The notes: generated by a model not told the origin, from the letters alone. Positions 35,958 through 64,000 are shown, counted from the first letter of the stretch. The stretch: DNA of 64,000 nt from an uncultured bacterium (GCA_900317935.1 ONIU01000005.1:1726-65725), one strand, 5' to 3'. Made by a program: numbers and translations.

Positions 35958-38516
35958 TTATTGTCTAAAAAAGTCCTGGGCACTTTTTAAAAGTAAGCGG
36001 AACTTTCCTTTTATAAAAGGTGATTCAGGAAGTGAATGAAGGAAATAACTGCCGTAAAACTTGTTGATAATTCTGTTATCAAGTATCCAGACAGTGCCTC
36101 TGTCTTTTTTTGAACGTATAAGCCTCCCAAAACCCTGTTTAAGCTTTATGGCCGCCATAGGAAGCTGATAGTCCTTAAATGGGTTACCACCATTTTCTTT
36201 TATTTTTTCGTTCCTTGCTTCAAGAACAGGGTCATTTGGTGAAGCAAAGGGCAGTTTAAGGATAATAAGATTTCTTAAAGATTCTCCAGGAATGTCTACG
36301 CCTTCCCAAAATGAATCTGTTCCAAATAACACTGCGTTTCCGTCTTCTTTGAATAATTCTACAAGATATTGTCTATCGAAGTCGCCCTGCTTATAACAGT
36401 TGATTCCTTGTGCTTCTAGTATAGGGCTAATATTATTATAGAACATATTTAAATGTGAATAAGAAGTGCACAGAACCAATGTACCGCCGAGAGATGATTT
36501 GATTATATCAATAATAGGTTGGGAAGCCTGTTCAATAAACAAGGCACTTGATGGGTCTGGTAAATCTGATGGTACAAACAATCTTGATTGTTCTTTATAA
36601 TCAAAAGGAGATTTATATCTTCCTTCGATTAGATTTGCTGAAATCTCTTCATTTGTTAAACCCAGTCTGGTTTTTAAAAAATTAAAGTTACCGCCAGTTG
36701 TCATTGTTCCAGACACCATTATTGTACATGGAATCTTATCGAAGCAATAATCTATCATCTGCTGAGAAATTGTAATCGGCAAAGAAGAATATGAAGTGTA
36801 TTTCCCCGTTTTGCGAACATTTGAAGTAAAGAAATGTACATAATCAGCTCTGTTTTCTGTTTCTAGCTCAAACATCATTTCAAGTCCGTTAGAAACTTCA
36901 TCTAGTCTGCTCGAATAATTATTTAATTCTGTGAAGGGAACTTCATAAATAGAATTATCTTCTTCAAAATCAGGCACAGAACTGTTTAAACGCCTTGCAA
37001 ATTTTTTCATTGAAGCAGATAAATGTTTTAATTCATCTTTCAGCTTTTTTGCTGTTGCACTTAAGATATTAAACTCATTTGAGGCTTCTTGCTTCGGGGT
37101 GACACGCAATCTGTATTCTCCAAGCTGAGTGCTGTCATTTAAAAGAAAACTTGTTATTGAATCGAATAGAACCTTGGAAATATCAGCTATTTCCATTCTT
37201 GAAGGAACAAGTATATCATTTATATCTTTTAAAAGAAGTTCTCTGTCTGAATCTTCTATATCGCCATGTTTAAAGGCTAGTGCGTTCGTTAACGTATAGA
37301 AGGTTCCGGATTCTTTTCTTCCCCGTTTTTGATAAATTTTGTTCATCAACCTTTGAAGTCCTGTAGCTGTAGTTCTGTAGCCAAAATGCTTAGTAGCTGT
37401 TTCTTCAAGATTATGAGCTTCATCCATTATAATTGCTTTGCAGGCTGGAATTACTGCTGTTTGAGAATATTCTGATGTTTCCGCTCTCAAAGCCAAATCG
37501 GAAAACAATAAAGAATGATTTACTACTAAAATATCGGCTTCAGCTGCTTTTCTTCGAGCATTATAAAAGAAGCATTCATTGTAATCCGGGCATTTTACTC
37601 CGGGGCAACTGTCTTTATCACAACAGACTTTATCCCATAAGCTTTCAGATGGAACCCAGGTTAAATCGCTCAAAGAACCGTCAGTCGTTTTTTCCATCCA
37701 GGCTGCTAATTTTTGAAATTGTGGAAATTCTAGTTCATCAAGAAGAAAGTCTGCATTATCACTTGCTGTAGCTTCTTTAACTCTTCTTAAGCAGATGTAA
37801 TTACTTCTACCTTTTAACAGACAATATTTGAAATCAAAAGGAATTATACTTTCAAGAAAAGGTAAATCTTTATCTATGAGCTGATATTGTAGATTTATGG
37901 TATTTGTAGAAACACAGACTCGGCATCTGTTCTTATGTGAGTAAAATATAGCTGGAATAAGATATGCCATACTTTTGCCTATACCCGTTTCACCCTCTAA
38001 TATTGCATGACAGGGACCATTTAAAGCATCTGTTATTTTTCCCATCAATTCTATCTGACCGTCACGTTGCTCATAATTTTTGAGCTTGGACGCAATTGGG
38101 CCTTCTTTCGAAATGTAGGCTATCATCTCTTTTTTGCTTAACTGCTCTGGTTGTTCTTCTATATAAGGTTCAACAACGACATAAAATTCAGAACAGTCAT
38201 TATTGTGGATTGCAAAACCTATTCCGGATTTCCCACAAATTGAAGCAACGCCCATATCGGCTTCTGAAGGTTTTAAGCGTCCTGATGGGTGATTGTGCAG
38301 AAGAACTTCTCCTGGTCTTAAGCTTTTAATAATCGCAGGAGCAGAATCTATTGTTCCTCTGGATATTACACGAACATCTGTATACTGGTCAGGTGCACAA
38401 CAGACTGCAGCTGAACATACTTCACAGCCGCCAGCCTGTTCTATTTCTTCTTTTAGATATTGTCTGTCATATTCATTTAATGTGACAGGTGAGGCTTTTT
38501 TCTTTCTACCAACCAT
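35958..38516 (-). CDS. dinG: DinG/Rad3-family Fe-S helicase with N-terminal RadC-like JAB/MPN metalloprotease domain
   Basis: 852 aa. JAMM motif HNHPSGRLKPSEAD in the first roughly 120 aa. Walker A GETGIGKS, DEAH box IMDEAHNLE, Cys cluster C..CCDKDSCPGVKCPDYNEC, motif V GTDSFWEGVDIPG and motif VI QGFGRLIRS. Confidence 0.8.
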   Translation of the reverse strand: MVGRKKKASPVTLNEYDRQYLKEEIEQAGGCEVCSAAVCCAPDQYTDVRVISRGTIDSAPAIIKSLRPGEVLLHNHPSGRLKPSEADMGVASICGKSGIGFAIHNNDCSEFYVVVEPYIEEQPEQLSKKEMIAYISKEGPIASKLKNYEQRDGQIELMGKITDALNGPCHAILEGETGIGKSMAYLIPAIFYSHKNRCRVCVSTNTINLQYQLIDKDLPFLESIIPFDFKYCLLKGRSNYICLRRVKEATASDNADFLLDELEFPQFQKLAAWMEKTTDGSLSDLTWVPSESLWDKVCCDKDSCPGVKCPDYNECFFYNARRKAAEADILVVNHSLLFSDLALRAETSEYSQTAVIPACKAIIMDEAHNLEETATKHFGYRTTATGLQRLMNKIYQKRGRKESGTFYTLTNALAFKHGDIEDSDRELLLKDINDILVPSRMEIADISKVLFDSITSFLLNDSTQLGEYRLRVTPKQEASNEFNILSATAKKLKDELKHLSASMKKFARRLNSSVPDFEEDNSIYEVPFTELNNYSSRLDEVSNGLEMMFELETENRADYVHFFTSNVRKTGKYTSYSSLPITISQQMIDYCFDKIPCTIMVSGTMTTGGNFNFLKTRLGLTNEEISANLIEGRYKSPFDYKEQSRLFVPSDLPDPSSALFIEQASQPIIDIIKSSLGGTLVLCTSYSHLNMFYNNISPILEAQGINCYKQGDFDRQYLVELFKEDGNAVLFGTDSFWEGVDIPGESLRNLIILKLPFASPNDPVLEARNEKIKENGGNPFKDYQLPMAAIKLKQGFGRLIRSKKDRGTVWILDNRIINKFYGSYFLHSLPESPFIKGKFRLLLKSAQDFFRQ

Positions 38517-39836
38517 TTAGGCTTTGTTTTCGTTTGTCTGTTCTTTTTTTTCAGGTGCTTTAAGAATTGAAAGTGTTTTGATCATTTCTTCATTCTTCAA
38601 TTCTTCTGCTAATTCAAAAATACTCTTATCTTCTTTGGTTTTGACTGTTATATCTGAACCGGCTGAAATAAGAAGTCTGACTGCTTCGAGGTTATTGCAT
38701 CTGATTGCAGCAAGTAGAGGCGTGTCAAAATTATCGTCACGTCTTTCTAATAAGACTCCATAACCTAATAAGGTAGCAAGAACGTCATACTGCTTTTCTA
38801 CAATAGCCATTTGAAGAGGTGTAAAACCGTATTTGTCGCGTGTTTCCGGGTCTGCGCCATTATCTATCAATATTTTGACTATTTCGTAATGACCCATTTT
38901 TGATGCTTCAAGAATAGGTGAATGACCAGAAATTGTTTCACATCTATGAACGTCAGAGCCTTTTTCCAAAAGCATTTTTACAGCGGGTATATTTCCTATT
39001 TGAGAAGCTGTAAGAAGGAGAGTCATGCCCATTTCGTCATTTTCATCCTTCAAAGACGGGTATTCATCGATTAGTTTTGCAAGTTCATCTATTTTGTTTT
39101 CTAATAATAAATCTTTTGCTTCGTTATATTTGCTTGAAATGGTCATTGATTGTGGAATTTTAGAAACTTCTTCAATATATTCAAGCAATCTGTCTTTGGG
39201 TAAATCTTCGTTCTTTTCATCTAAAAGCTTGGTAACTTCAGGAAGACTATTCATTAAAATAGCTGAAATTGTAAGACTTTTACTTTGTCTATAGTTAGAA
39301 AGTAGGCATTCAAGACCCTGAACATATAAAACAGGAATTTTATTGCTTTTTCCAACCCCAGTAAGAAATCTGGCAAAACTGAAGTTTAAACGAGGCTGTT
39401 TGAGTCTTTCAAAGTAGATACATGCATTTTGGGCTTTTTGAATTCTCATTACATGTTCTTTGTCATGGAATGATGTGGTCCAGGCTAGGTGACTTAACTT
39501 GTTGCAGAGCACTGCGTCACCTTTAGCACAGGCTATTTCTGCACAAACAGAAGTTAAAAAGCTTGTTTGAATATAGTCAAAAACAAAGGGGTGGGGTTCC
39601 TGACCTAAGAATTCATTAAGCGCATCGTCATCTCTATCTAGCTTTAAATAACATATAAAAGTGTAATATTTTTGCCACCCAAGCATAATTGGATCAACAG
39701 GCTTTTCAGCATACATCCTTTGTTTCATTTCAGCACAAAGAGCTAGTGCTTTTTCATAATTCTTATTGGTTATAAGATTCATTATTTCTTTTAGATATAC
39801 ATCGTAAAGTTGTTGTTTTTCCATTTTTGTCTCCAT
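38517..39836 (-). CDS. TPR-like helical / ankyrin-repeat protein
   Basis: ORF track starts at TTG 39887; the first ATG is at 39836, and ATG 39824 has GGAG 6 nt upstream. The C-terminal half has 4-5 ANK repeats (GMTLLLTASQIGNIPAVKMLLEKGSDV, GHSPILEASKMGHYEIVKILIDNGADP and others). Its stop abuts the helicase start (TAAATG). Confidence 0.8.
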   Translation of the reverse strand: METKMEKQQLYDVYLKEIMNLITNKNYEKALALCAEMKQRMYAEKPVDPIMLGWQKYYTFICYLKLDRDDDALNEFLGQEPHPFVFDYIQTSFLTSVCAEIACAKGDAVLCNKLSHLAWTTSFHDKEHVMRIQKAQNACIYFERLKQPRLNFSFARFLTGVGKSNKIPVLYVQGLECLLSNYRQSKSLTISAILMNSLPEVTKLLDEKNEDLPKDRLLEYIEEVSKIPQSMTISSKYNEAKDLLLENKIDELAKLIDEYPSLKDENDEMGMTLLLTASQIGNIPAVKMLLEKGSDVHRCETISGHSPILEASKMGHYEIVKILIDNGADPETRDKYGFTPLQMAIVEKQYDVLATLLGYGVLLERRDDNFDTPLLAAIRCNNLEAVRLLISAGSDITVKTKEDKSIFELAEELKNEEMIKTLSILKAPEKKEQTNENKA

Positions 39837-39960
39837 ATTTGGGTGCAATATATTTATTGAGCAGATATCATACCTTTTATTTCTCAATAAAACAATAGTC
39901 TAGGAAAATTTGTTTTGGATGTTTTTTGTAAAAGTTTCACTGTTTTGTTATTAAAATCCC

Positions 39961-40420
39961 GCTTAATCCCCATTTAAGAAAGGGGTAATTATAACAGCTG
40001 ACTGACGACCAACAGGATGTTGGGAGTGCAAGCGAGCGCCAGGATGTCAAGCGAGTCGTAGGGGGCATAAAGCTTCGCAGTGTTACGCTTCTCTGTGGGA
40101 CTCTTCGTTGTGGGACAGCAGCATAACGACTTGTGGGAATTGTTATAAGGGTGAGAAGGGTTGGAAGGGTTGGAAGGGTTAGAAGTGGAACGCTGCGGTG
40201 TGGTACACTTCGTTGTGGGACGTTTCACTGTGGTTATTGTCGAACAACTCCCACAGGCAGCGTTAGCTGCAGTCTCACAAGTTGTGTTAGCAACAGTCCC
40301 ACAGAGGCTTTAGCCTCGTTCCACCAACCACCAATATCTCCATCTTAGGTCTTGTGTCTCAAGTTCTGGTCTTATATCTCCATCTTTGGTCTTGTATCTC
40401 AATTTTAATGGCTCTTGATT
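39961..40420 (+). repeat. Composite intergenic repeat locus R4 (degenerate M1 + M2 + short tandem tracts)
   Basis: Direct repeat AGGATGT..CAAGCGAG x2 (40014-40056). M2 at 40069-40325, nearly identical to 41735-42006. Then a CCACCAACCACC / GGTCTTGT(A/G)TCTC tract to about 40410. Confidence 0.85.
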
Positions 40421-41540: not shown

Positions 41541-41734
41541 GTAAGACCCCTTTCGGTTCCTGTGGAACCACTTTCCCAGCAATGCTATCGCATTCTGGGG
41601 GCAGATCGTTTTCTCAAAGAAGCGCCCCCAGTTTTGCAATTAGAGATGGCGACGTAGTGATCATCCATCCCGATGCTCCCCCAGAGTTTGAAAAACTGCT
41701 GGGGGAGCTGTCACGAAGTGACTGAGGGGGTCTT
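41541..41734 (+). repeat. Intergenic structured module M1, long copy
   Basis: Complementary AAGACCCC (41543-41550) and GGGGTCTT (41727-41734). Hairpins GGTTCC/GGAACC (41555-41569), AATGC/GCATT (41581-41594) and GTCAC/GTGAC (41710-41722). GAAGCGCCCCCAG core with a duplicated CCCCCAG. Confidence 0.85.
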
Positions 41735-42006
41735 AAAGCTTCGCAGTGTTACGCTTCGTTGTGGGACAGCAGCATAACTACTTGTGGGAATTGTTATAAG
41801 AGTGAGAAGGGTTGGAAGGGTTGGAAGGGTTAGAAGTGGAACGCTGCGCTGTGGGACACTTCGTTGTGGGACGGCTGTTTACAGCCTGTGGTAATAGTCA
41901 ACAACAAACACAGGCAGCGTTAGCTGCCGTCTCACAAGTTGTGTTAGCGACAGTCTCACAAGTTGCGTCAGCAACAGTCCCACAGAGGCTTTAGCCTCGT
42001 CCCACC
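41735..42006 (+). repeat. Intergenic palindromic module M2 (TGTGGGAC iterons / GTCYCACA + hairpins), full copy
   Basis: Left arm has YTGTGGGA(C/A) x5 around a 4-unit GGTTGGAAG tract. Right arm has GTCTCACA, GTCTCACA, GTCCCACA, each followed by a 5-6 bp stem hairpin (GGCAGC/GCTGCC, GTTGC/GCAAC, GAGGC/GCCTC). Confidence 0.9.
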
Positions 42007-42012
42007 TACTTC

Positions 42013-44107: not shown

Positions 44108-44171
44108 TTTTTTACCTTTAAAAATTTAGTAGTTATTTTATTAAGCCGTTTATTCGTAATTGTCAAGATTT

Positions 44172-44556
44172 CTAAAAGAAGAAGCGCCCAAAGCGAGACT
44201 GAGATGGCTTTAAAGTAGTGGAATGCTTTGCTGTGATACACTTCGTTGTGTGACAGCAGCATAACTGCTTGTGGGAATTGTTATAAGAGTTAGAAGGGTT
44301 GGAAGGGTTTAAAAGAATGAAGTGTAACGCTGCGCTGTGGGACACTTCGTTGTGGGACGGCTGTTTACAGCCTGTGGTAATAGTCAACAACAAACACAGG
44401 CAGCGTTAGCTGCCGTCTCTCAATTTGCGTCAGCAACAGTCCCACAGAGGCTTTAGCCTCGTCTCACCATCTGACAACCGAGGGCAGATCGTTTTTCCCC
44501 GAAGCGCCCCCAGTTTAGCAATTTGAGCTGTCAGCTTGCTGACTGAGGGGGTCTTC
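44172..44556 (+). repeat. Composite intergenic repeat locus R6 (degenerate M1 - M2 - short M1)
   Basis: GAAGAAGCGCCC at 44178. M2 at 44212-44468. Short M1 at 44480-44555 with a GTCAG/CTGAC hairpin (44530-44543) and a GAGGGGGTCTT end. Lies in the divergent promoter region between the MATE gene and the first channel gene. Confidence 0.85.
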
Positions 44557-44646
44557 TCTTTATCCAAATAAATAACTTAAATTTCTGAGCAAAATAATAT
44601 ACAATACTGACAAATTTATAATTCATACTCATAAAAGGAAATTGCT

Positions 44647-46389
44647 ATGAAAAATATCAAGTCAAACTTAGTTTTAATCATTATTTTCGTTGAAATTTTC
44701 CTCGTTATGGGTATTACCTTTATCGTTAAAACTCTAAATTATGAAGATTATACCGAGAAAAAATTTATAGATAAAACTACTCAGGTTTTGAAAGAAACGG
44801 CTTCAGGTAAAGATGTTGATGCAATTATAGAAGAGGGTGGGGCTAAATTTAATAAACTTCTTACAACTCTTGATATTGCTCAAAACAGTTTTGCTTTTGC
44901 TATAGACTCAAATCTTAAAATTAAGATGTATAACAAAACTAAGGAAGAATTCAGCAAAGCTCTTGATATTTCCATGTTTCCTCAATTAAAGGAAGTAAAC
45001 ACATTAGCTTTTTATGTTTCTAAACGCCAATCAAGTAATTTTGAGTATTTTTCCGAATCTAGCAAAGAAAAACTAATATACTTTGTAGAGCCTGTTCCGA
45101 ACTCTAAGTGGGTATTGGTTGTCAGTGTCTTAAAAGACAGCATTGTCATGAAAACGGTTACAGAAAAAAGATACTTTTTTTGTGGTATAGCATGCTGTAT
45201 TTTTGCTTTAACAATGACTGCCGCTTTCTTCGGTTGGGTTCTTCCTAAGGATATAAAAAATAAATTCTGGTATTCAGCTTCTTTTATTTCTTTAGGTCTT
45301 TCTGTTGGAATTAGTATTTTATGCGTTTTCAGCAATAAGTATCATGATTACGAAAACCCAGAAGAAATTTCTTTGACTGACCAGAACATAATTGATGGCT
45401 TTCTAGATAAGTTTGATAATCAACTTGTTGAAGAAGGAAACAGCAGAATAAACAGAGTCAGAGTAGGGGTTTTCTTAAAAAATCTTGATTTTGAATCCAG
45501 CACAAAGGTTAATTTTTCCGGTTATTTGTGGCAAAAATTAGATAAAGACCAGTTGGGAAAGATAAAAGAAGGCTTTTATTTTGCTGACTCCTTTAAAAGC
45601 AAGTTTCATAAACTTCATGAAAAAGAAAATTCTGATGGAAGCAAGATATTTGTCTGGTATTTTACTTGTCTTGTGAGCTGTGATTTGGCTGAGAACAAAC
45701 TTTATCCATTTGATGTAGAATCAGTAAGTTTAAGACTGAGTTCTTCTGATTTTGGGAATAATGTAATACTTGTTCCTGATATTAGAGATTATGTTGATAT
45801 TGAGCCTTATTCGAAACCAGGAATCTATAATAACCTTACTATACCAGGCTGGAATGTTTCTGAAAGTTATTTCACTTATTTAAAGGAAAACTATAACTCT
45901 ACTTTTGGGGTTTTTCAGTCTCATACTGGCGGGTCACTTAATAACGAACTTTATTTTAAAGTAATTCTCAGAAGGTCTTTCTTAGGTTCTTTCATAAGTA
46001 TATTCCTGCCAATATTCGTTACAATGGTCATGATGTTTATTCTTCTATTAACTTGTTCCAGCGATGAAGAAAGATCAAAGAAACTTGGTTTCTCTGCAGG
46101 GGCTATATTAGCCAGCACTGCCGCGTTATTCTTTGTTGTTATCGTTGCTCAGATTGACTTAAGAGACAAGGTTGCTGCTAATGGGCTTATATATATGGAT
46201 ATTTACTATTTCGTAACCTATTTGATGTTTATGATAGTTAGCATTGATTCAATTCTGCTTTGCTGGCCTGATAAATTCAAATGGATAATCTGGGAAGACA
46301 ATATTATTGTTAAAAGCCTGTTCTGGCCAGTTGCTACTTCTATTATTTTCCTGTCTACCTTGGTTTATTATTTCCCAAGCGGTATATGA
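44647..46389 (+). CDS. Pentameric ligand-gated ion channel (pLGIC/Cys-loop superfamily) homolog with N-terminal TM-sensor-TM module, paralog 1
   Basis: 580 aa. The C-terminal roughly 350 aa show VRVGVFLKNLDFESSTKVNFSGYLWQKL (beta1-2), LYPFDVESVSLRL (Cys-loop-equivalent YPFD), ILRRSFLGSFISIFLPIFV (M1), ERSKKLGFSAGAILASTAALFFVV (M2), YMDIYYFVTY (M3) and a C-terminal M4. The N-terminal roughly 230 aa are TM, a roughly 150-aa extracytoplasmic domain, then two TM helices. Confidence 0.75.
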   Translation: MKNIKSNLVLIIIFVEIFLVMGITFIVKTLNYEDYTEKKFIDKTTQVLKETASGKDVDAIIEEGGAKFNKLLTTLDIAQNSFAFAIDSNLKIKMYNKTKEEFSKALDISMFPQLKEVNTLAFYVSKRQSSNFEYFSESSKEKLIYFVEPVPNSKWVLVVSVLKDSIVMKTVTEKRYFFCGIACCIFALTMTAAFFGWVLPKDIKNKFWYSASFISLGLSVGISILCVFSNKYHDYENPEEISLTDQNIIDGFLDKFDNQLVEEGNSRINRVRVGVFLKNLDFESSTKVNFSGYLWQKLDKDQLGKIKEGFYFADSFKSKFHKLHEKENSDGSKIFVWYFTCLVSCDLAENKLYPFDVESVSLRLSSSDFGNNVILVPDIRDYVDIEPYSKPGIYNNLTIPGWNVSESYFTYLKENYNSTFGVFQSHTGGSLNNELYFKVILRRSFLGSFISIFLPIFVTMVMMFILLLTCSSDEERSKKLGFSAGAILASTAALFFVVIVAQIDLRDKVAANGLIYMDIYYFVTYLMFMIVSIDSILLCWPDKFKWIIWEDNIIVKSLFWPVATSIIFLSTLVYYFPSGI

Positions 46390-46489
46390 CAATAATGAAT
46401 TAACTTGAAAAATACCTTATCTGGTTTATATTTGAGTAATAGTTTGTATATGGCTTATGTCAAAAGCAATAAATGAAAAGAAATAAATT

Positions 46490-48229
46490 ATGAAAAATAT
46501 TAAAACCAGTATTGCTATACCAATTATTTTTATCTGGTTGTTTCTTGTTCTTGGAATAACCCTGATAGTAAAAACTGTTAATTATGAAAGTTATACAGAA
46601 TTAAAGTTTATAGATAAAACTACTAAAACTTTACAGAAAACTGTTTCTGAAAAAGGCTTAAATGAAATCATCGACGAAGGCGGAGCTAAATTCAATAAGC
46701 TTTTGACAAAGCTTGATATAGCGCAGAACTCTTTTGCATTAGCTATTGATTCTGATAAAAAGATTAAAATCTATAATAAAACCAAGGCAGAAGTCAGTGA
46801 ATCCCTGGATATTTCAATATTCCCTCATTTAAAAGATAACAAAGAACTAATTGATCTGGTAACTAAACATCAATCCGGGCACTTTGAATTCATTTCAAAT
46901 ACAAGCAAGGAAAAATTATATTGTTTTGTAGAAGCTGTTCCGAGCTCTAAATGGTGCTTAGTAGTTACTGTTTTAAAAGATAGTATTGTTATGAAGACAA
47001 TTAAGGAAAAACGATACTATTTTTCTGGTATAGCCTGCTGCATTATATCTTTTACTATGTTGATTACATTGCTGGGTTGGCTTTTCCCTAAAAATATAAA
47101 AAATAAATTCTGGTATTCTTCCTCATTGTTTTCTATAGTTCTTGCTTTGGGAATAAGCATGCTTTGTGTTTTCAGCAACAAATTTAATGACTATGAAAGC
47201 CCTCAGGAAATCTCTTTAACAGACCAGAACATTATCGAAGGTTTCCTTGATAAATATGACAATCAGTTGGCTGAAGAAGGTAATGGACAAATAAATAGAG
47301 TTAAAGTAGGTATTTTCCTTAAGAATATTGATTTCGAATCAAGCACAAAGGTAAATTATAGCGGTTATCTTTGGGAAAAGCTTACCAAAGAACAGGTTGG
47401 AAACATAGAACCTGGTTTATATTTTTCTGATTCATTTAAAAGTAAATTTCAGCAGTTATATGAAAAGGATAATCCTGACGGCAGCAAAGTCTACGTCTGG
47501 TATTTTGAGTGCCGTCTAAGCGCTGACTTGCAGGAGAAAAAGCTTTATCCTTTTGATGTAGAAGCAGTAAAAGTCAGACTTCGCTCAAGGGATTTCGGAA
47601 ACAATGTTATTCTTGTGCCTGATACCAAGGATTATGTTGATGTAGAACCTCATGCAAAACCTGGAATATATAACCAGATGACAATTCCAGGCTGGAATAT
47701 TTCTGAAAGCTTTTTTACTTATTTAAAAGAACAATATGATTCAACTTTTGGTGTGTTCCACTCTCATACAGGAAGTATAGTTTATACTGAACTCTATTTT
47801 AACGTTATATTGAGACGTTCATTTTTAGGTTCATTTATTAGTATATTCCTGCCTATATTCGTAACTTTAGTCATGATTTTTATTCTGCTTCTCACCTGTT
47901 CCAATGATGAGGAAAGGTCGAAGCATCTTGGTTTCTCTGCAGGAGCTATATTAGCCAGCACAGCTGCATTATTCTTCGTTGTAATCGTAGCTCAGATTGA
48001 TTTAAGAGATAAAGTGGCGGCCGATGGCCTGATTTACATGGATATTTATTATTTTGTAACTTACTTTGAATTTATGCTTGTCAGCATTAACTCTATTTTG
48101 ATGTGCTGGCCAGATAAGTTTAAATGGGTTGCCTGGGAAGACAATATCTTGGTAAAAAGCACTTTCTGGCCAATAGTTACATCTATAATATTTATAGCTA
48201 CGCTATTTTATTACTTCCCAAGAATCTAG
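46490..48229 (+). CDS. pLGIC homolog with N-terminal TM-sensor-TM module, paralog 2
   Basis: 579 aa, colinear with 44647..46389 over the full length. The pore region is nearly identical and the N-terminal sensor region is more diverged. Confidence 0.75.
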   Translation: MKNIKTSIAIPIIFIWLFLVLGITLIVKTVNYESYTELKFIDKTTKTLQKTVSEKGLNEIIDEGGAKFNKLLTKLDIAQNSFALAIDSDKKIKIYNKTKAEVSESLDISIFPHLKDNKELIDLVTKHQSGHFEFISNTSKEKLYCFVEAVPSSKWCLVVTVLKDSIVMKTIKEKRYYFSGIACCIISFTMLITLLGWLFPKNIKNKFWYSSSLFSIVLALGISMLCVFSNKFNDYESPQEISLTDQNIIEGFLDKYDNQLAEEGNGQINRVKVGIFLKNIDFESSTKVNYSGYLWEKLTKEQVGNIEPGLYFSDSFKSKFQQLYEKDNPDGSKVYVWYFECRLSADLQEKKLYPFDVEAVKVRLRSRDFGNNVILVPDTKDYVDVEPHAKPGIYNQMTIPGWNISESFFTYLKEQYDSTFGVFHSHTGSIVYTELYFNVILRRSFLGSFISIFLPIFVTLVMIFILLLTCSNDEERSKHLGFSAGAILASTAALFFVVIVAQIDLRDKVAADGLIYMDIYYFVTYFEFMLVSINSILMCWPDKFKWVAWEDNILVKSTFWPIVTSIIFIATLFYYFPRI

Positions 48230-48428: not shown

Positions 48429-49217
48429 TTATTTCTTTTCGAAAATGCTGCAGTTATACTTACTAGATTTATATAATCTATTGTAGCTCTTGGGTGTATT
48501 TTTATACATTCCATTGCATTCAATAATTTTTTTATTTCTATATTTCAAAGCAAGATAAACTGATTTTAATACATCTGATTTAGCTTCTTTGTACCCTTTA
48601 TTAATATTCTTTTGTGAATAATAGTTTGAGTCACCTTTATGTTTCGGGTCCCAACCCTGCATTTTCTTTATAGTAGTTTTCTGGTTAAGCATAGCACTTG
48701 CCCAGCCGTAGTGAAGATATGGGTCTTTGAAATAACCTTCTCTTTGTGTTGTTCCAATTAATATTATTACATAATCTTTTGATACGCCGATAGATGCAGC
48801 GAGTTCTATAATTTCTTCTCTTGTCGGCGTTTTCATACTTTTCAATTCTTTATTAAAGTCTTCAGGAGAAATACCTTTATTTACTGATTTTACGGTTTCT
48901 TTAGTCTTTTTACTGTCTGAATCTGTAATTGTAGAATCTGCAGTCTTAGCTTCTTTATTGTCATCTAGTTTCTTGGGAGTTTCAGGCTTTGTATCTGTTG
49001 GATTTTTTGTGACAACATCATTTTTTATATCTTTTTCTGTTGTAAGATATTCACCTTCCCAAATTGGAGTTGTATCTAATTCATTATTAGCTACATCTTT
49101 TTTTATTTTAATTTCATTGTCTTCGAAAGGATTATCAGCATAAAGGTTTTGACCGAATAGTGCTGAAATACTTAAGGCCAGAATCAAACTCTTTTTAATC
49201 ATATTAATTCTCTCCAT
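48429..49217 (-). CDS. Secreted protein, possible cell-wall hydrolase-like C-terminal domain
   Basis: 262 aa with a signal peptide and a T/K/D-rich linker. The C-terminal region (IGTTQREGYF..WASAMLNQ) faintly resembles SleB/CwlJ-type Hydrolase_2, but this functional guess is weak. Confidence 0.5.
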   Translation of the reverse strand: MERINMIKKSLILALSISALFGQNLYADNPFEDNEIKIKKDVANNELDTTPIWEGEYLTTEKDIKNDVVTKNPTDTKPETPKKLDDNKEAKTADSTITDSDSKKTKETVKSVNKGISPEDFNKELKSMKTPTREEIIELAASIGVSKDYVIILIGTTQREGYFKDPYLHYGWASAMLNQKTTIKKMQGWDPKHKGDSNYYSQKNINKGYKEAKSDVLKSVYLALKYRNKKIIECNGMYKNTPKSYNRLYKSSKYNCSIFEKK

Positions 49218-49409: not shown

Positions 49410-50747
49410 ATGAATAGAAAAAATTTGATTAAAGCTGAACCAGAACTAATAAAGTTTTTCAAATCTCTTTGGCCCTTTGAAATACAAACAGAAAAAGAAA
49501 GCTTAAATATTGAAATAGGCCAAAATAAAAGAGAGATTTGGGCTTTTCCTCTATCTGGCGGAAGTGAATATATAGATGATGCAATTCATGCAATGGAAGA
49601 ACATCGCAAAGTTATTCCGGCTGCCTTGAACCGCTGTATTGATAAAATTGATGGCGCTTTCCTGGTTGGTTATTATGCAAAAAAAGTCAAAGAAGATGAA
49701 TATGAACATGGGTTGGTTATTATACCAGCAAATAGAGGTTCTAAGGAATTAAATTCCAGACTTTTAACTGATTTTTGTTTTGAGCGAAACTCTCTCTATG
49801 AGAATATGCTATCTGAAGAATATTTTTCTCAGATTAACTGTTTTTTAAATGCTTATAAGTCAGTTTGTAAAAAATATTGGATTCAGGATACAAAACTTAT
49901 TAATACCTCTTTTGTTAAGAGGCCAGAAATCATTGACGATGAGCTTTTCCCGGAACAGGCGGCTATTTCTACATGGCATACAGAAGTTTACCCAGATTTT
50001 ATGCGACCTGTGAGCATGATAGGTGATATTTATATTGATTTTATGATTTGTGATCATAAGCTTATTTGCCTGATGAACGAAATAGAAGATGATGATACAA
50101 TCTGGAATTTTTTTGAGGAAGAATGTATAAAAAAGATTTATACTTTGCCAGCTTCTATCTCGAACAATTCAGCAAATATAAATTTAAAAGGCTGGTGTGA
50201 AACTACATCATTTGAATTATCAGAAAGAAAAGATTTAAATTATAAAACTATCTATGATATTGCTGTTCCAGGATTAAAAGGGGCTCTTATTGATCAAGGT
50301 TATTCTATTGGCTGGTGTGGGAAGATAGCTTTTATTTGTATTGGAATTGATAAACCTTTGTACGTTTCTCCTGAATTAGTTGTACAACTCTCTGATATAT
50401 TTGATTTTGAGCAGGCAGGCAACGATAATAAAGCTTTTTGGAGAAATAGAGATATTGAATATAGAAGAAGATTTGGAAATCATAATCTGGTTAAAGTTTG
50501 CGACGACCTCATGACTGAAGAAATCGCTAAAGAAAAGCTTTTTGAAGCTTGTAAAAAAGTTTTGCAAAGTTGCAAAAATCCTTTAAAACCAATTCAAAAG
50601 GGAATAACAAAATATGTTCTACGCTATTTAAAAGGATTAGCTCGTGGGTCATATGAAAAACAAGCTTCTGAACTTATTGTTAAAATCAATTCTGACCAGA
50701 TTTGTGCTGACTTACAAGAAACCATCTATTCTATCTTGAATCTTTAA
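49410..50747 (+). CDS. Hypothetical cytoplasmic protein
   Basis: 445-aa ORF with no TM helix, no signal peptide and no recognised motif. Confidence 0.6.
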   Translation: MNRKNLIKAEPELIKFFKSLWPFEIQTEKESLNIEIGQNKREIWAFPLSGGSEYIDDAIHAMEEHRKVIPAALNRCIDKIDGAFLVGYYAKKVKEDEYEHGLVIIPANRGSKELNSRLLTDFCFERNSLYENMLSEEYFSQINCFLNAYKSVCKKYWIQDTKLINTSFVKRPEIIDDELFPEQAAISTWHTEVYPDFMRPVSMIGDIYIDFMICDHKLICLMNEIEDDDTIWNFFEEECIKKIYTLPASISNNSANINLKGWCETTSFELSERKDLNYKTIYDIAVPGLKGALIDQGYSIGWCGKIAFICIGIDKPLYVSPELVVQLSDIFDFEQAGNDNKAFWRNRDIEYRRRFGNHNLVKVCDDLMTEEIAKEKLFEACKKVLQSCKNPLKPIQKGITKYVLRYLKGLARGSYEKQASELIVKINSDQICADLQETIYSILNL

Positions 50748-51110
50748 TCTTCTAACTTGAAACTCGTAACTTGTAACTAAGTGTTACGCTTCGCTGTGGG
50801 ACACTTCGTTGTGAGACAGCTGTTTACAGCCTGTGGAAATAGACAACAATAAACACGGACAGCTTTAGCTGCCGTCTCACAGATTGCTCGCAATCGTCTC
50901 ACAGAGGCTTTAGCCTCGTTCCACTGTCTAAATATCGAGGTCAGAACTTTTTACTCGAAGAAGCGCCCCTAAAATGCCTTCGGCATTGCTGGGGGAGCTG
51001 TCACGTAGTGACTGAGGGGGTCTTTAAGATAATTCTAAATTCTCACTCACTACCTATCACCCACCACTAAACTTGTAACTTGTAACTTAAAACTTAAAAC
51101 TTATATCTAA
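50748..51110 (+). repeat. Composite intergenic repeat locus R7 (heptamer tract - short M2 - short M1 - tracts)
   Basis: CTTGTAAC-type tract at 50748-50780. M2 without the 9-mer tract at 50781-50924. M1 at 50937-51024 with AATGCC/GGCATT (50973-50987) and GTCAC/GTGAC (51000-51012). CACC and AACTTGT/AACTTAA tracts extend to about 51110. Confidence 0.85.
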
Positions 51111-53195: not shown

Positions 53196-53765
53196 AGATT
53201 AAGTTACAAGACACAAGTTATAAGATTCAAGTTACAGATTAAAATCTTATGTCTCCATCTATGGACTTGTATCTCAATTTTTGGTCTTAAATATTACAAC
53301 AACTAACACGGGCAGCTTTACCTGCCGTCTCACAGATTGCGTTTGCAATCGTCCCACAGAGGCCTTAGCCTCGTATCACCTTCATCTTATAATCTTGTAT
53401 CTTGTAACTTATGACTTGTAACTTATAACTTATAACTAAAGGTCTCTCGTCAGCTGTCCTTAAAATTCACAACTACCACTACTCACTTATATCACTAATC
53501 ACTAATCACTTATCACTTATCACTAATCTTATATCTTCTATCTTATATCTTGTAACTTGTAACTTGTAACTTGTAACTAAGTGTTACGCTTCGCTGTGGG
53601 ACACTTCGTTGTGGGACGTTTCACTGTGGTAATAGTCAACAACTAACACGGGCAGCTTTAGTTGCCGTCTCACAGATTGCGTCAGCAATCGTCCAACAGA
53701 GGCTTTAGCCTCGTATCACCTACCACCAACCACTCACCACTTACCACTTACCACTTACCACCTAC
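53196..53765 (+). repeat. Composite intergenic repeat locus R9 (tracts - M2 right half - about 200 bp heptamer tracts - short M2 - CCACTTA tract)
   Basis: M2 right half at 53293-53380. Heptamer tracts at 53381-53580 (CTTGTAA, CTTATAA, ATCACTA/ATCACTT, CTTATAT). Short M2 at 53581-53720. (CCACTTA)n tract at 53721-53765. Confidence 0.85.
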
Positions 53766-63837: not shown

Positions 63838-64000
63838 TTAATGTTGTGGGACGGCTGTTTACTGCTTGTGGAAATAGTAATCAATTCACACAAGCAGCTA
63901 TGCTGCTGTCCCACAACGTAGTGTCTCACAGCGCAGCGTATCACTTTTAACCCTTCCAACTCTTCTCACCCTTCTAACCCTTCTCACAATTATAACTGAA
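63838..64000 (-). repeat. M2-family module in inverted orientation, rearranged, runs off window
   Basis: GTTGTGGGAC (63843-63852) and GTCCCACAAC (63908-63917) form the outer stem; CTGCTTGTG (63862-63870) and CACAAGCAG (63889-63897) form the inner stem. Then the reverse complement of ACGCTGCGCTGTG.GAC and of a 5-unit GGTT(G/A)GAAG tract. Confidence 0.85.

Follow-up and report, generated by a model that had tools for sequence, protein, structure and literature searches.

Tandem genes for likely Cache-fused pentameric ligand-gated ion channel subunits with a reduced sensor module in an uncultured bacterium

Organization of the locus

The stretch of DNA analyzed here (64,000 nucleotides from an uncultured bacterium, GCA_900317935.1 ONIU01000005.1:1726-65725, hereafter called the window) carries, at positions 44647-48229, two tandem genes whose products are likely paralogous subunits of a prokaryotic pLGIC (pentameric ligand-gated ion channel). 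The two open reading frames (ORFs) that an original prediction, made from the DNA alone, had delimited were both recovered on the + strand: paralog A extends from 44647 to 46389 and encodes 580 amino acids (aa), and paralog B extends from 46490 to 48229 and encodes 579 aa. They are separated by an AT-rich spacer of 100 nt (46390-46489, + strand) that includes a promoter-like match (10 of 12, 46405-46432). The two proteins share 73% identity across 577 aa with zero gaps and both match the hidden Markov model (HMM) of their family, with E-values of 1e-137 for A and 1e-140 for B. All the motifs quoted in the original prediction were found, i.e. LYPFDVESVSLRL in A, LYPFDVEAVKVRL in B, and ILRRSF, IFLPIF and ERSK(K/H)LGFSAGAILASTAALFFVV.

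A Kyte-Doolittle scan delineated seven transmembrane (TM) segments in A (aa 9-27, 177-198, 209-228, 446-468, 481-502, 515-537 and 556-576); the hydropathy pattern of B is the same, except that its M3 does not reach a simple threshold. The parts follow one another in the same order in each subunit: TM1, an outside domain of ~145 aa, a TM2-TM3 hairpin, a beta-rich domain of ~210 aa and the helices M1 to M4, the M3-M4 loop being short in both A and B.

In A, TM1 (aa 9-27; 44671-44727) is the N-terminal membrane anchor of the sensor, with a hydropathy peak of 3.0 and a helix spanning residues 6-30 in the models. It is followed by a predicted extracytoplasmic single Cache/PAS-like module (aa 29-175; 44731-45171), delimited from the AlphaFold2 (AF2) model, Foldseek and the HMM alignment, then by a hairpin that comprises TM2, a short basic loop (LPKDIKNKFW) predicted to be cytoplasmic and TM3 (aa 176-230; 45172-45336; hydropathy and models). 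The putative pLGIC extracellular domain (ECD; aa 246-440; 45382-45966) begins with an N-terminal helix that precedes a beta-sandwich and includes the Pro-loop signature Y353-P354-F355-D356 (45703-45714). The channel domain (aa 441-577; 45967-46377) consists of the pre-M1 residue R443 and M1 to M4, of which M2, the putative pore helix, covers aa 479-502 (46081-46152) in a register taken from the published alignment and from hhalign.

The counterparts in B were located by alignment to A, in which no gap is needed, together with hydropathy and HMM or BLASTP searches: the Cache/PAS-like module (aa 29-175; 46574-47014), the TM2-loop-TM3 hairpin (aa 176-230; 47015-47179), the ECD (aa 246-440; 47225-47809) with its YPFD at aa 353-356, and the channel domain M1-M4 (aa 441-577; 47810-48220).

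Relationship to pentameric ligand-gated ion channels

The original prediction had placed the C-terminal part of both proteins in the pLGIC (Pro-loop) superfamily, and for residues ~240-580 this placement was borne out by structural and profile comparisons. The AF2 model of A has a mean predicted local distance difference test score (pLDDT) of 61, with values of 70-88 in the N-terminal domain and in the beta-rich domain, whose strands cover residues 269-443 at a pLDDT of 70-86. When the full-length model was compared to the PDB with Foldseek, the best matches were all chains of the glycine receptor (GlyR), the GABA-A receptor or GLIC, with E-values down to 7e-11. These pLGIC matches had a probability of 1.00 over ~370 columns, and 753 matches were obtained at E<=1e-3.

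Profile comparisons that do not use the model led to the same placement. A profile of 109 family members, restricted to the C-terminal 345 residues, was compared by hhalign to GLIC (sequence identical to PDB 2xq3/3ehz) and matched it with a probability of 95.6% (E 1.3e-8). In the resulting register, YPFD is aligned to GLIC Y119-D122, R443 to GLIC R192 and P455 to GLIC P204. Controls with reversed GLIC and eight shuffles did not exceed a probability of 0.9%. At a low alignment threshold, the family profile is collinear with the whole of GLIC (1-317), and the family ECD compared separately to GLIC gave a probability of 94%. Furthermore, we compared family residues 429-530 (beta10, pre-M1, M1, M2 and M3) to a canonical profile built from 21 pLGICs over the published alignment block from beta9 to M3, from which the Cache-fused rows were excluded. 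The probability was 91% (E 1e-6), and that of controls with shuffled columns was at most 0.3%.

A third line of evidence comes from sequences assigned to the superfamily two decades ago. Fragments of Chut2789, Meth2754 and Mdeg1480, published by Tasneem, Iyer, Jakobsson and Aravind (Genome Biol 6:R4, 2004/5; PMC549065), match A and B by BLASTP with E-values of 1e-25 to 1e-33 from pre-M1 to M4 and of 1e-12 to 1e-17 in the ligand-binding domain (LBD). The same fragments match the family HMM at E 1e-45 to 1e-74, and the motifs of the published Cache-fused sequences are those of the consensus of our family alignment. This direct homology to founding members indicates that the genes of the window belong to the clade that was put in the pLGIC superfamily in 2004.

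Several results weigh against this placement. The pLDDT of the transmembrane domain (TMD) is below 50, which makes the helical portion of the Foldseek match weak evidence. The TMD alone gave no significant hhalign match to GLIC (probability 0.1%) or to the canonical M1-M3 profile (1.6%, in the right register). Likewise, the N-terminal half of the ECD gave no significant match to GLIC or to the canonical pLGIC profile (probabilities in the 0.1-1.6% range). The hmmscan check suggested with the original prediction was negative, neither PF02931 (Neur_chan_LBD) nor PF02932 (Neur_chan_memb) matching A or B at E<=10. A scan of NCBIfam found no pLGIC match for A or B, and no Neur_chan model appeared among the 25 families listed in a Pfam scan of 67 family members. 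Searches of all PDB sequences with phmmer and with a 17-sequence profile returned no significant pLGIC match, and with a 67-sequence profile the best E-value of GLIC was only 2-3.5. The models PF02931 and PF02932 derive largely from metazoan sequences. We attribute the Neur_chan negatives to the limited sensitivity of these models and do not regard them as evidence against homology.

Taken at face value, the negative searches of curated Pfam, NCBIfam and PDB sequences and the failure of the TMD to yield a significant profile match by itself would be expected if the resemblance were coincidental, i.e. if an unrelated beta-domain had been joined to a 4-TM protein with a YPFD motif arising by chance. 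However, Foldseek, the controlled hhalign comparisons and the homology to proteins placed by PSI-BLAST in 2004 all agree, collinearly from the ECD through M3, and all landmark residues are in register. We consider a chance resemblance very improbable and this explanation effectively refuted. Hence, A and B are likely to be paralogous subunits of a prokaryotic pLGIC that belongs to the Cache-fused clade of Tasneem et al.

The Cache-fused family and its known relatives

An exhaustive HMM search retrieved 1,556 clusters (50% identity) at E<=1e-3, 1,027 of them at E<=1e-30. The 15 close relatives of A and B fall inside this large Cache-fused family; a profile search with a diverse alignment found the same 15 close relatives and unrelated Cache kinases among the matches listed. 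Members occur in Riflebacteria, Nitrospinota, Verrucomicrobiota, Chloroflexota, cyanobacteria, Bacteroidota, Gammaproteobacteria and Methanosarcina. In public databases, they are named 'hypothetical protein', 'Cache domain-containing protein' or 'tetratricopeptide repeat protein'. For instance, a Spirulina member of 1,282 aa (P0066) carries a large N-terminal array of tetratricopeptide repeats ahead of the channel module.

The architecture itself is not new and was published as a kind in 2004. As a 'third architectural theme', the survey of Tasneem et al. describes bacterial ligand-gated ion channels of the acetylcholine receptor type (ART-LGICs) with N-terminal MCP-N and Cache domains from Methanosarcina, Cytophaga and Microbulbifer. 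Its supplementary alignment includes Chut2789 from Cytophaga hutchinsonii (709 aa, LBD from residue 375), Meth2754 from Methanosarcina barkeri (698 aa), MA1624 from M. acetivorans (696 aa) and Mdeg1480 from Microbulbifer degradans (966 aa). The running text of the survey places the extra domains after a signal peptide and ahead of the LBD, without discussion of the TM2-TM3 hairpin. It argues for homopentamers, most genomes having a single copy, and suggests a role in chemotaxis, which the data from the window neither support nor contradict. Our literature search for the pairing of a pLGIC with a Cache domain found nothing beyond Tasneem et al. The locus contributes a sub-lineage with a reduced sensor, a conserved pair of tandem paralogs and a probable new host phylum.

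The published Cache-fused proteins display a sensor, a TM hairpin, an ECD and four TM helices in the same order as A and B. They also share with them the motifs IPTG..F, TGY.WQ, YPFD, VLVPD, PELYFN, FFV...H/Q-I-x-LR, YLEY.YF and DN...K..WP. They differ in size: they have ~700-970 aa, and their full MCP-N+Cache (dCache) sensor measures ~290 aa, whereas A and B have ~580 aa with a single module of ~145 aa. Moreover, A and B are tandem paralogs, whereas the survey expected single-copy homopentamers.

GLIC and ELIC share with A and B the Pro-loop YPFD, the pre-M1 Arg, the M1 Pro, a 4-TM domain whose M3-M4 loop is short, and a 9' Leu; ELIC also has a 16' Phe together with L9'. Unlike A and B, both lack an N-terminal sensor and extra TM helices. 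At the sequence level, the family detectably resembles GLIC in the beta6-to-M1 region only, and in the hhalign alignment the region from M2 to the M2-M3 loop seems to be ~8 residues longer in the family than in canonical channels. DeCLIC from Desulfofustis is, like the putative channel of the window, a prokaryotic pLGIC that carries an accessory periplasmic N-terminal domain (NTD), which is thought to modulate gating. However, DeCLIC's NTD is a pair of beta-rich jelly-roll lobes fused straight to the ECD with no TM between them, whereas the accessory domain of A and B is an alpha/beta Cache/PAS module that lies between TM1 and TM2 and is joined through the hairpin. The cassette TM1-sensor-TM2 is also that of the dCache_1 sensors of chemoreceptors and histidine kinases (mmHK1S-Z2/Z3, TlpA, Tlp3, PctA). 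The output of those sensors is a cytoplasmic HAMP, kinase or MCP domain, whereas in A and B it would be a pLGIC channel reached via a third TM helix; in addition, A and B retain the membrane-proximal module only.

A reduced Cache sensor joined through a membrane hairpin

The N-terminal domain had been described as Cache- or PAS-like from its size and position, and both the predicted fold and the structural matches agree with this. The AF2 model of residues 1-236 of A (pLDDT 76) has the PAS/Cache topology beta1-beta2-alpha-beta3-beta4-beta5. With Foldseek, it matches the Cache/PDC sensors MkcA, mmHK1S-Z2/Z3 (3li8/3lib), TlpA, Tlp3 and TlpC, as well as the Cache domains of CaV alpha2delta and photoactive yellow protein (PYP). 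These matches have E-values of 2e-5 to 1e-3 and a probability of 1.00 over ~100-110 columns, which corresponds to one module of the double-Cache targets. The Pfam Cache models do not match A or B directly, but 47/67 family members match Pfam dCache_1, and the family profile of 67 sequences retrieves the dCache sensor structures 3lib, 3li8 and 3lic from the PDB with E-values of 1e-20 to 1e-25.

The half of the sensor that was retained could be identified with an HMM built only from the 94 members of >=640 aa. A and B align to this model in a single stretch, positions 197-706 corresponding to residues 66-577 (E ~1e-137 to 1e-140), and residues 66-175 of A cover positions 197-~310. They lack ~160 positions of the model, i.e. 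the rest of the long first helix and the membrane-distal Cache module, and have residues 29-65 instead. The module of A and B thus corresponds by homology to the half of a dCache sensor that lies next to the membrane. Consistent with this, the distance from TM1 to TM2 is ~157 aa in the clade of the window, compared with a family median of 288 aa. Outside the close relatives P0001-P0014, a similarly short sensor was found only in P0016, P0052, P0121 and P0159 among the cluster representatives listed. From these alignments, the ancestral double-Cache sensor appears to have lost its distal module in the lineage of the window and to have kept its membrane-proximal module. In dCache sensors, the membrane-distal module is usually the one that binds the ligand.

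A hydrophobic peak is present at TM2 in 104/104 and at TM3 in 101/104 family members covering the region. The short loop that joins them most often spans ~16 aligned residues if the helix ends are counted, and on average contains 2.2 K+R versus 0.8 D+E; this net positive charge fits a cytoplasmic position. The sensor and the ECD are both predicted to lie outside the cell, given the odd/even count of TM segments, the basic N-terminus, the positive loop and the homology to periplasmic Cache domains. Judging by its sequences, the Cache-fused family appears to be 7-TM throughout. Therefore, the view that a TM-bounded sensor connected through a membrane hairpin is unusual did not hold: it is the usual arrangement in a family of ~1,556 clusters with members published in 2004, and the hairpin is topologically necessary because a complete TM1-Cache-TM2 cassette precedes a periplasmic ECD.

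This layout probably arose when a channel acquired such a complete cassette upstream, of the type that chemoreceptors and histidine kinases have; TM3 would then be the descendant of the signal anchor of the channel itself.

Pore and landmark residues

Conservation is strongest in the Pro-loop, the pre-M1 region and the M2-M3 loop, which are known to act as coupling elements in other pLGICs. Among 109 family members, the Pro of the Pro-loop is conserved in 100% and its Asp in 90%, the pre-M1 Arg in 90% and the M1 Pro in 98%; R506 is conserved in 100% of the family. In M2, conservation reaches 86% for 2' Gly, 95% for 9' L/V/I, 85% for 13' A/S and 79% for 16' Phe. The register in A is K479=0', G481=2', G485=6', L488=9', A492=13', F495=16' and I499=20'.

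At -2' to 0', A and B both have S-K-K, unlike cation channels, with their -1' Glu, and anion channels, with their P-A-R. Position -1' is variable among family members (E 24%, S 14%, D 13%), and ion selectivity therefore cannot be called. In addition, the canonical Pro of the M2-M3 loop is missing from the Cache-fused family. This feature and the lack of a -1' Glu also count against a channel function, and for these reasons selectivity and even conduction are only putative.

The proteins might accordingly be viewed as a pLGIC scaffold that does not conduct ions, serving as a membrane receptor or scaffold in which the Cache remnant is a vestigial tether. Besides the missing Pro, the loss of the ligand-binding distal Cache module, the very hydrophobic lining of the pore (9' Leu, 16' Phe and 17' Phe) and the absence of a charged -1' ring in A and B would be in line with such a function. 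However, conservation is highest in M2 and the coupling elements, whether the paralogs are compared with each other (94-100%) or the whole family is considered (86% for 2' Gly, 100% for R506), as would be expected of a working pore and gate. Furthermore, the L9'/F16' pattern is shared with ELIC, which does function as a channel, and the N-terminal domain is under purifying selection, with a ratio of nonsynonymous to synonymous substitution rates (dN/dS) of 0.08. We thus regard a non-conducting scaffold as improbable and retain a ligand-gated channel as the likely function of the pair.

Such a channel would comprise five subunits arranged around a pore whose lining is provided by M2 (2' Gly, 6' Gly, 9' Leu, 13' Ala and 16' Phe), with an ELIC-like hydrophobic gate at 9' and 16'. 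A periplasmic small molecule or ion would open the pore via the ECD. The tethered Cache module may tune gating, either by contacting the ECD or through packing of TM2/TM3 on the lipid-facing M1, M3 or M4.

Divergence of the paralogs and subunit assembly

The identity between A and B varies along the proteins: 61% in TM1, 67% in the N-terminal domain, 62% in the TM2-TM3 hairpin, 72% in the ECD and 86% in the TMD, where it reaches 91% in M1 and 94% in the M1-M2 loop plus M2. It is 100% over residues 439-459 (pre-M1 and M1) and 480-511 (M2 and the M2-M3 loop). The largest differences are located in residues 43-64 and 108-139 of the sensor, in TM1-TM3 and in the segment 296-313 of the ECD. Hence, of the contrast that had been drawn between a nearly identical pore and diverged sensor and ECD loops, the first part stands, whereas the sensor and the ECD loops have diverged only moderately. 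The dN/dS is 0.05-0.09 where it can be estimated, except for the hairpin (0.27), and synonymous sites are close to saturation. Both copies are intact, and these values indicate that A and B are both old and under purifying selection.

The same order, i.e. MatE (-), an A-type gene and a B-type gene, is found in three assemblies: the window, GCA_016648615.1 (577 + 578 aa) and ERZ1461885 (580 + 579 aa). The spacer between the A-type and the B-type gene ranges from 100 to 255 nt. The presence of the tandem pair in all three indicates that the duplication is older than these lineages. Other relatives have a single copy, for instance L001 and L002, whose proteins are 69-71% identical to those of the window. 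A, B and the single-copy clade are roughly equidistant (70-75%), A being slightly more diverged.

An identical pore associated with a diverged sensor and outer ECD fits two channels that respond to different modulators or partners and, equally, a mixed pentamer. To our knowledge, the prokaryotic pLGICs characterised so far are all homomers, and an obligate heteropentamer of A and B would, if real, be the first heteromeric one from a prokaryote. Several observations are compatible with it. The tandem order with its short spacer is kept in the three assemblies, no + strand terminator-like site was found between the genes of the window and both copies are under purifying selection. The complete identity of pre-M1/M1 and of M2 plus the M2-M3 loop would yield a symmetric pore in a mixed assembly, and the single-copy argument of Tasneem et al. 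for homopentamers does not apply to a tandem pair. However, the spacer contains a promoter-like site, and the most divergent regions (the sensor, TM1-TM3 and residues 296-313) have no demonstrated pattern on complementary subunit faces. Moreover, the nearest single-copy clade (P0006-P0011 and L001/L002) is as similar to A and B (70-75%) as A is to B, so that one subunit type is evidently sufficient. Since closely related lineages manage with a single copy, we consider obligate heteromerization doubtful.

Still less likely is a more elaborate proposal, in which a displacement of TM2, like that in chemoreceptors and histidine kinases, would be passed via the hairpin to the lipid-facing M1, M3 or M4 and thereby gate or bias the pore, and in which A and B would form the first prokaryotic heteromer, its pore being identical and its two sensor faces different. 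If true, such a coupling route from TM2-TM3 to M1/M3/M4 would be without equivalent in any known pLGIC.

Host and genomic context

The closest genomic relatives of A and B are encoded by metagenome-assembled genomes of Candidatus Riflebacteria obtained from metagenomes, including that of a reindeer gut sample; a search for related loci with a close alignment yielded 5 loci. The host is probably a member of Candidatus Riflebacteria as judged from these relatives. The GC content of the window (~33%) and its gene content do not argue against this origin.

Downstream of the B-type gene, both GCA_016648615.1 and ERZ1461885 encode BatD, which is followed in GCA_016648615.1 by a MoxR-like AAA gene. 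In the window, two unrelated ORFs are found instead: 48429-49217 (-), which encodes 262 aa with a hydrophobic, signal peptide-like start, and 49410-50747 (+), which encodes 445 aa. Synteny thus breaks directly after B in the window. Neither ORF had a match in Pfam or PADLOC. A role as a defence effector was considered and dropped, as PADLOC gave no match for A, B or these two unannotated neighbours.

No partner gene is conserved across the compared loci. Two distant Riflebacteria homologs, 31-34% identical to A (L003 620-5983 and L005 50-5504), lie directly 3' of two large genes of the same orientation, at a distance of only 6-61 nt. These genes, which are absent from the window, encode a ~620-aa protein without Pfam match and a ~1,170-aa NHL-repeat/TIG beta-propeller protein, and may be a conserved operon partner of the channel gene at those loci.

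The 540-nt intergenic region upstream of A (44108-44646) is richer in GC than the ~33% background and contains a dispersed repeat of ~290 nt. The repeat is highly conserved across its three copies in the window, the others being located at ~40050-40400 and ~41700-42010, and short matches to it occur at 50785-50817, 53585-53617 and 63908-63925 (-). Its core motif, GACACTTCGTTGTGGGAC, occurs 11 times where 0 are expected and is paired at a spacing of 104-105 nt in three loci. Rfam returned nothing credible in the window or in the intergenic region upstream of A. The repeat could be an element of the repetitive extragenic palindromic (REP) or miniature inverted-repeat transposable element (MITE) type, or a family of non-coding RNAs without Rfam match.

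Further upstream, 35958-39887 (-) includes a DinG/XPD-type helicase of 852 aa (Helicase_C_2, DEAD_2) whose N-terminus gives a weak RadC-like JAB match. It abuts a 456-aa ankyrin-repeat protein encoded on the same strand (ORF ends 38516 and 38517), an unusual pairing in bacteria.

Significance for the pLGIC superfamily

Structural work on human neurotransmitter receptors relies mainly on GLIC, ELIC, DeCLIC and other bacterial pLGICs as models. According to reviews up to November 2025, little is known about the NTDs of pLGICs, and DeCLIC alone has been even partly characterised. The Cache-fused family was catalogued in 2004 and is experimentally uncharacterised. Our analysis indicates that the Neur_chan models of Pfam miss this large clade, an annotation gap that extends to the names of its members in public databases. 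The locus will not surprise a specialist aware of the 2004 survey, and its value is that of a target for structural biology. As a compact and conserved pair (~580 aa with a single-module sensor), A and B are a practical choice for obtaining the first structure of a 7-TM pLGIC. They would also be useful for testing how a membrane-tethered sensor is coupled to a Cys-loop-type pore and whether bacteria have heteromeric pLGICs.

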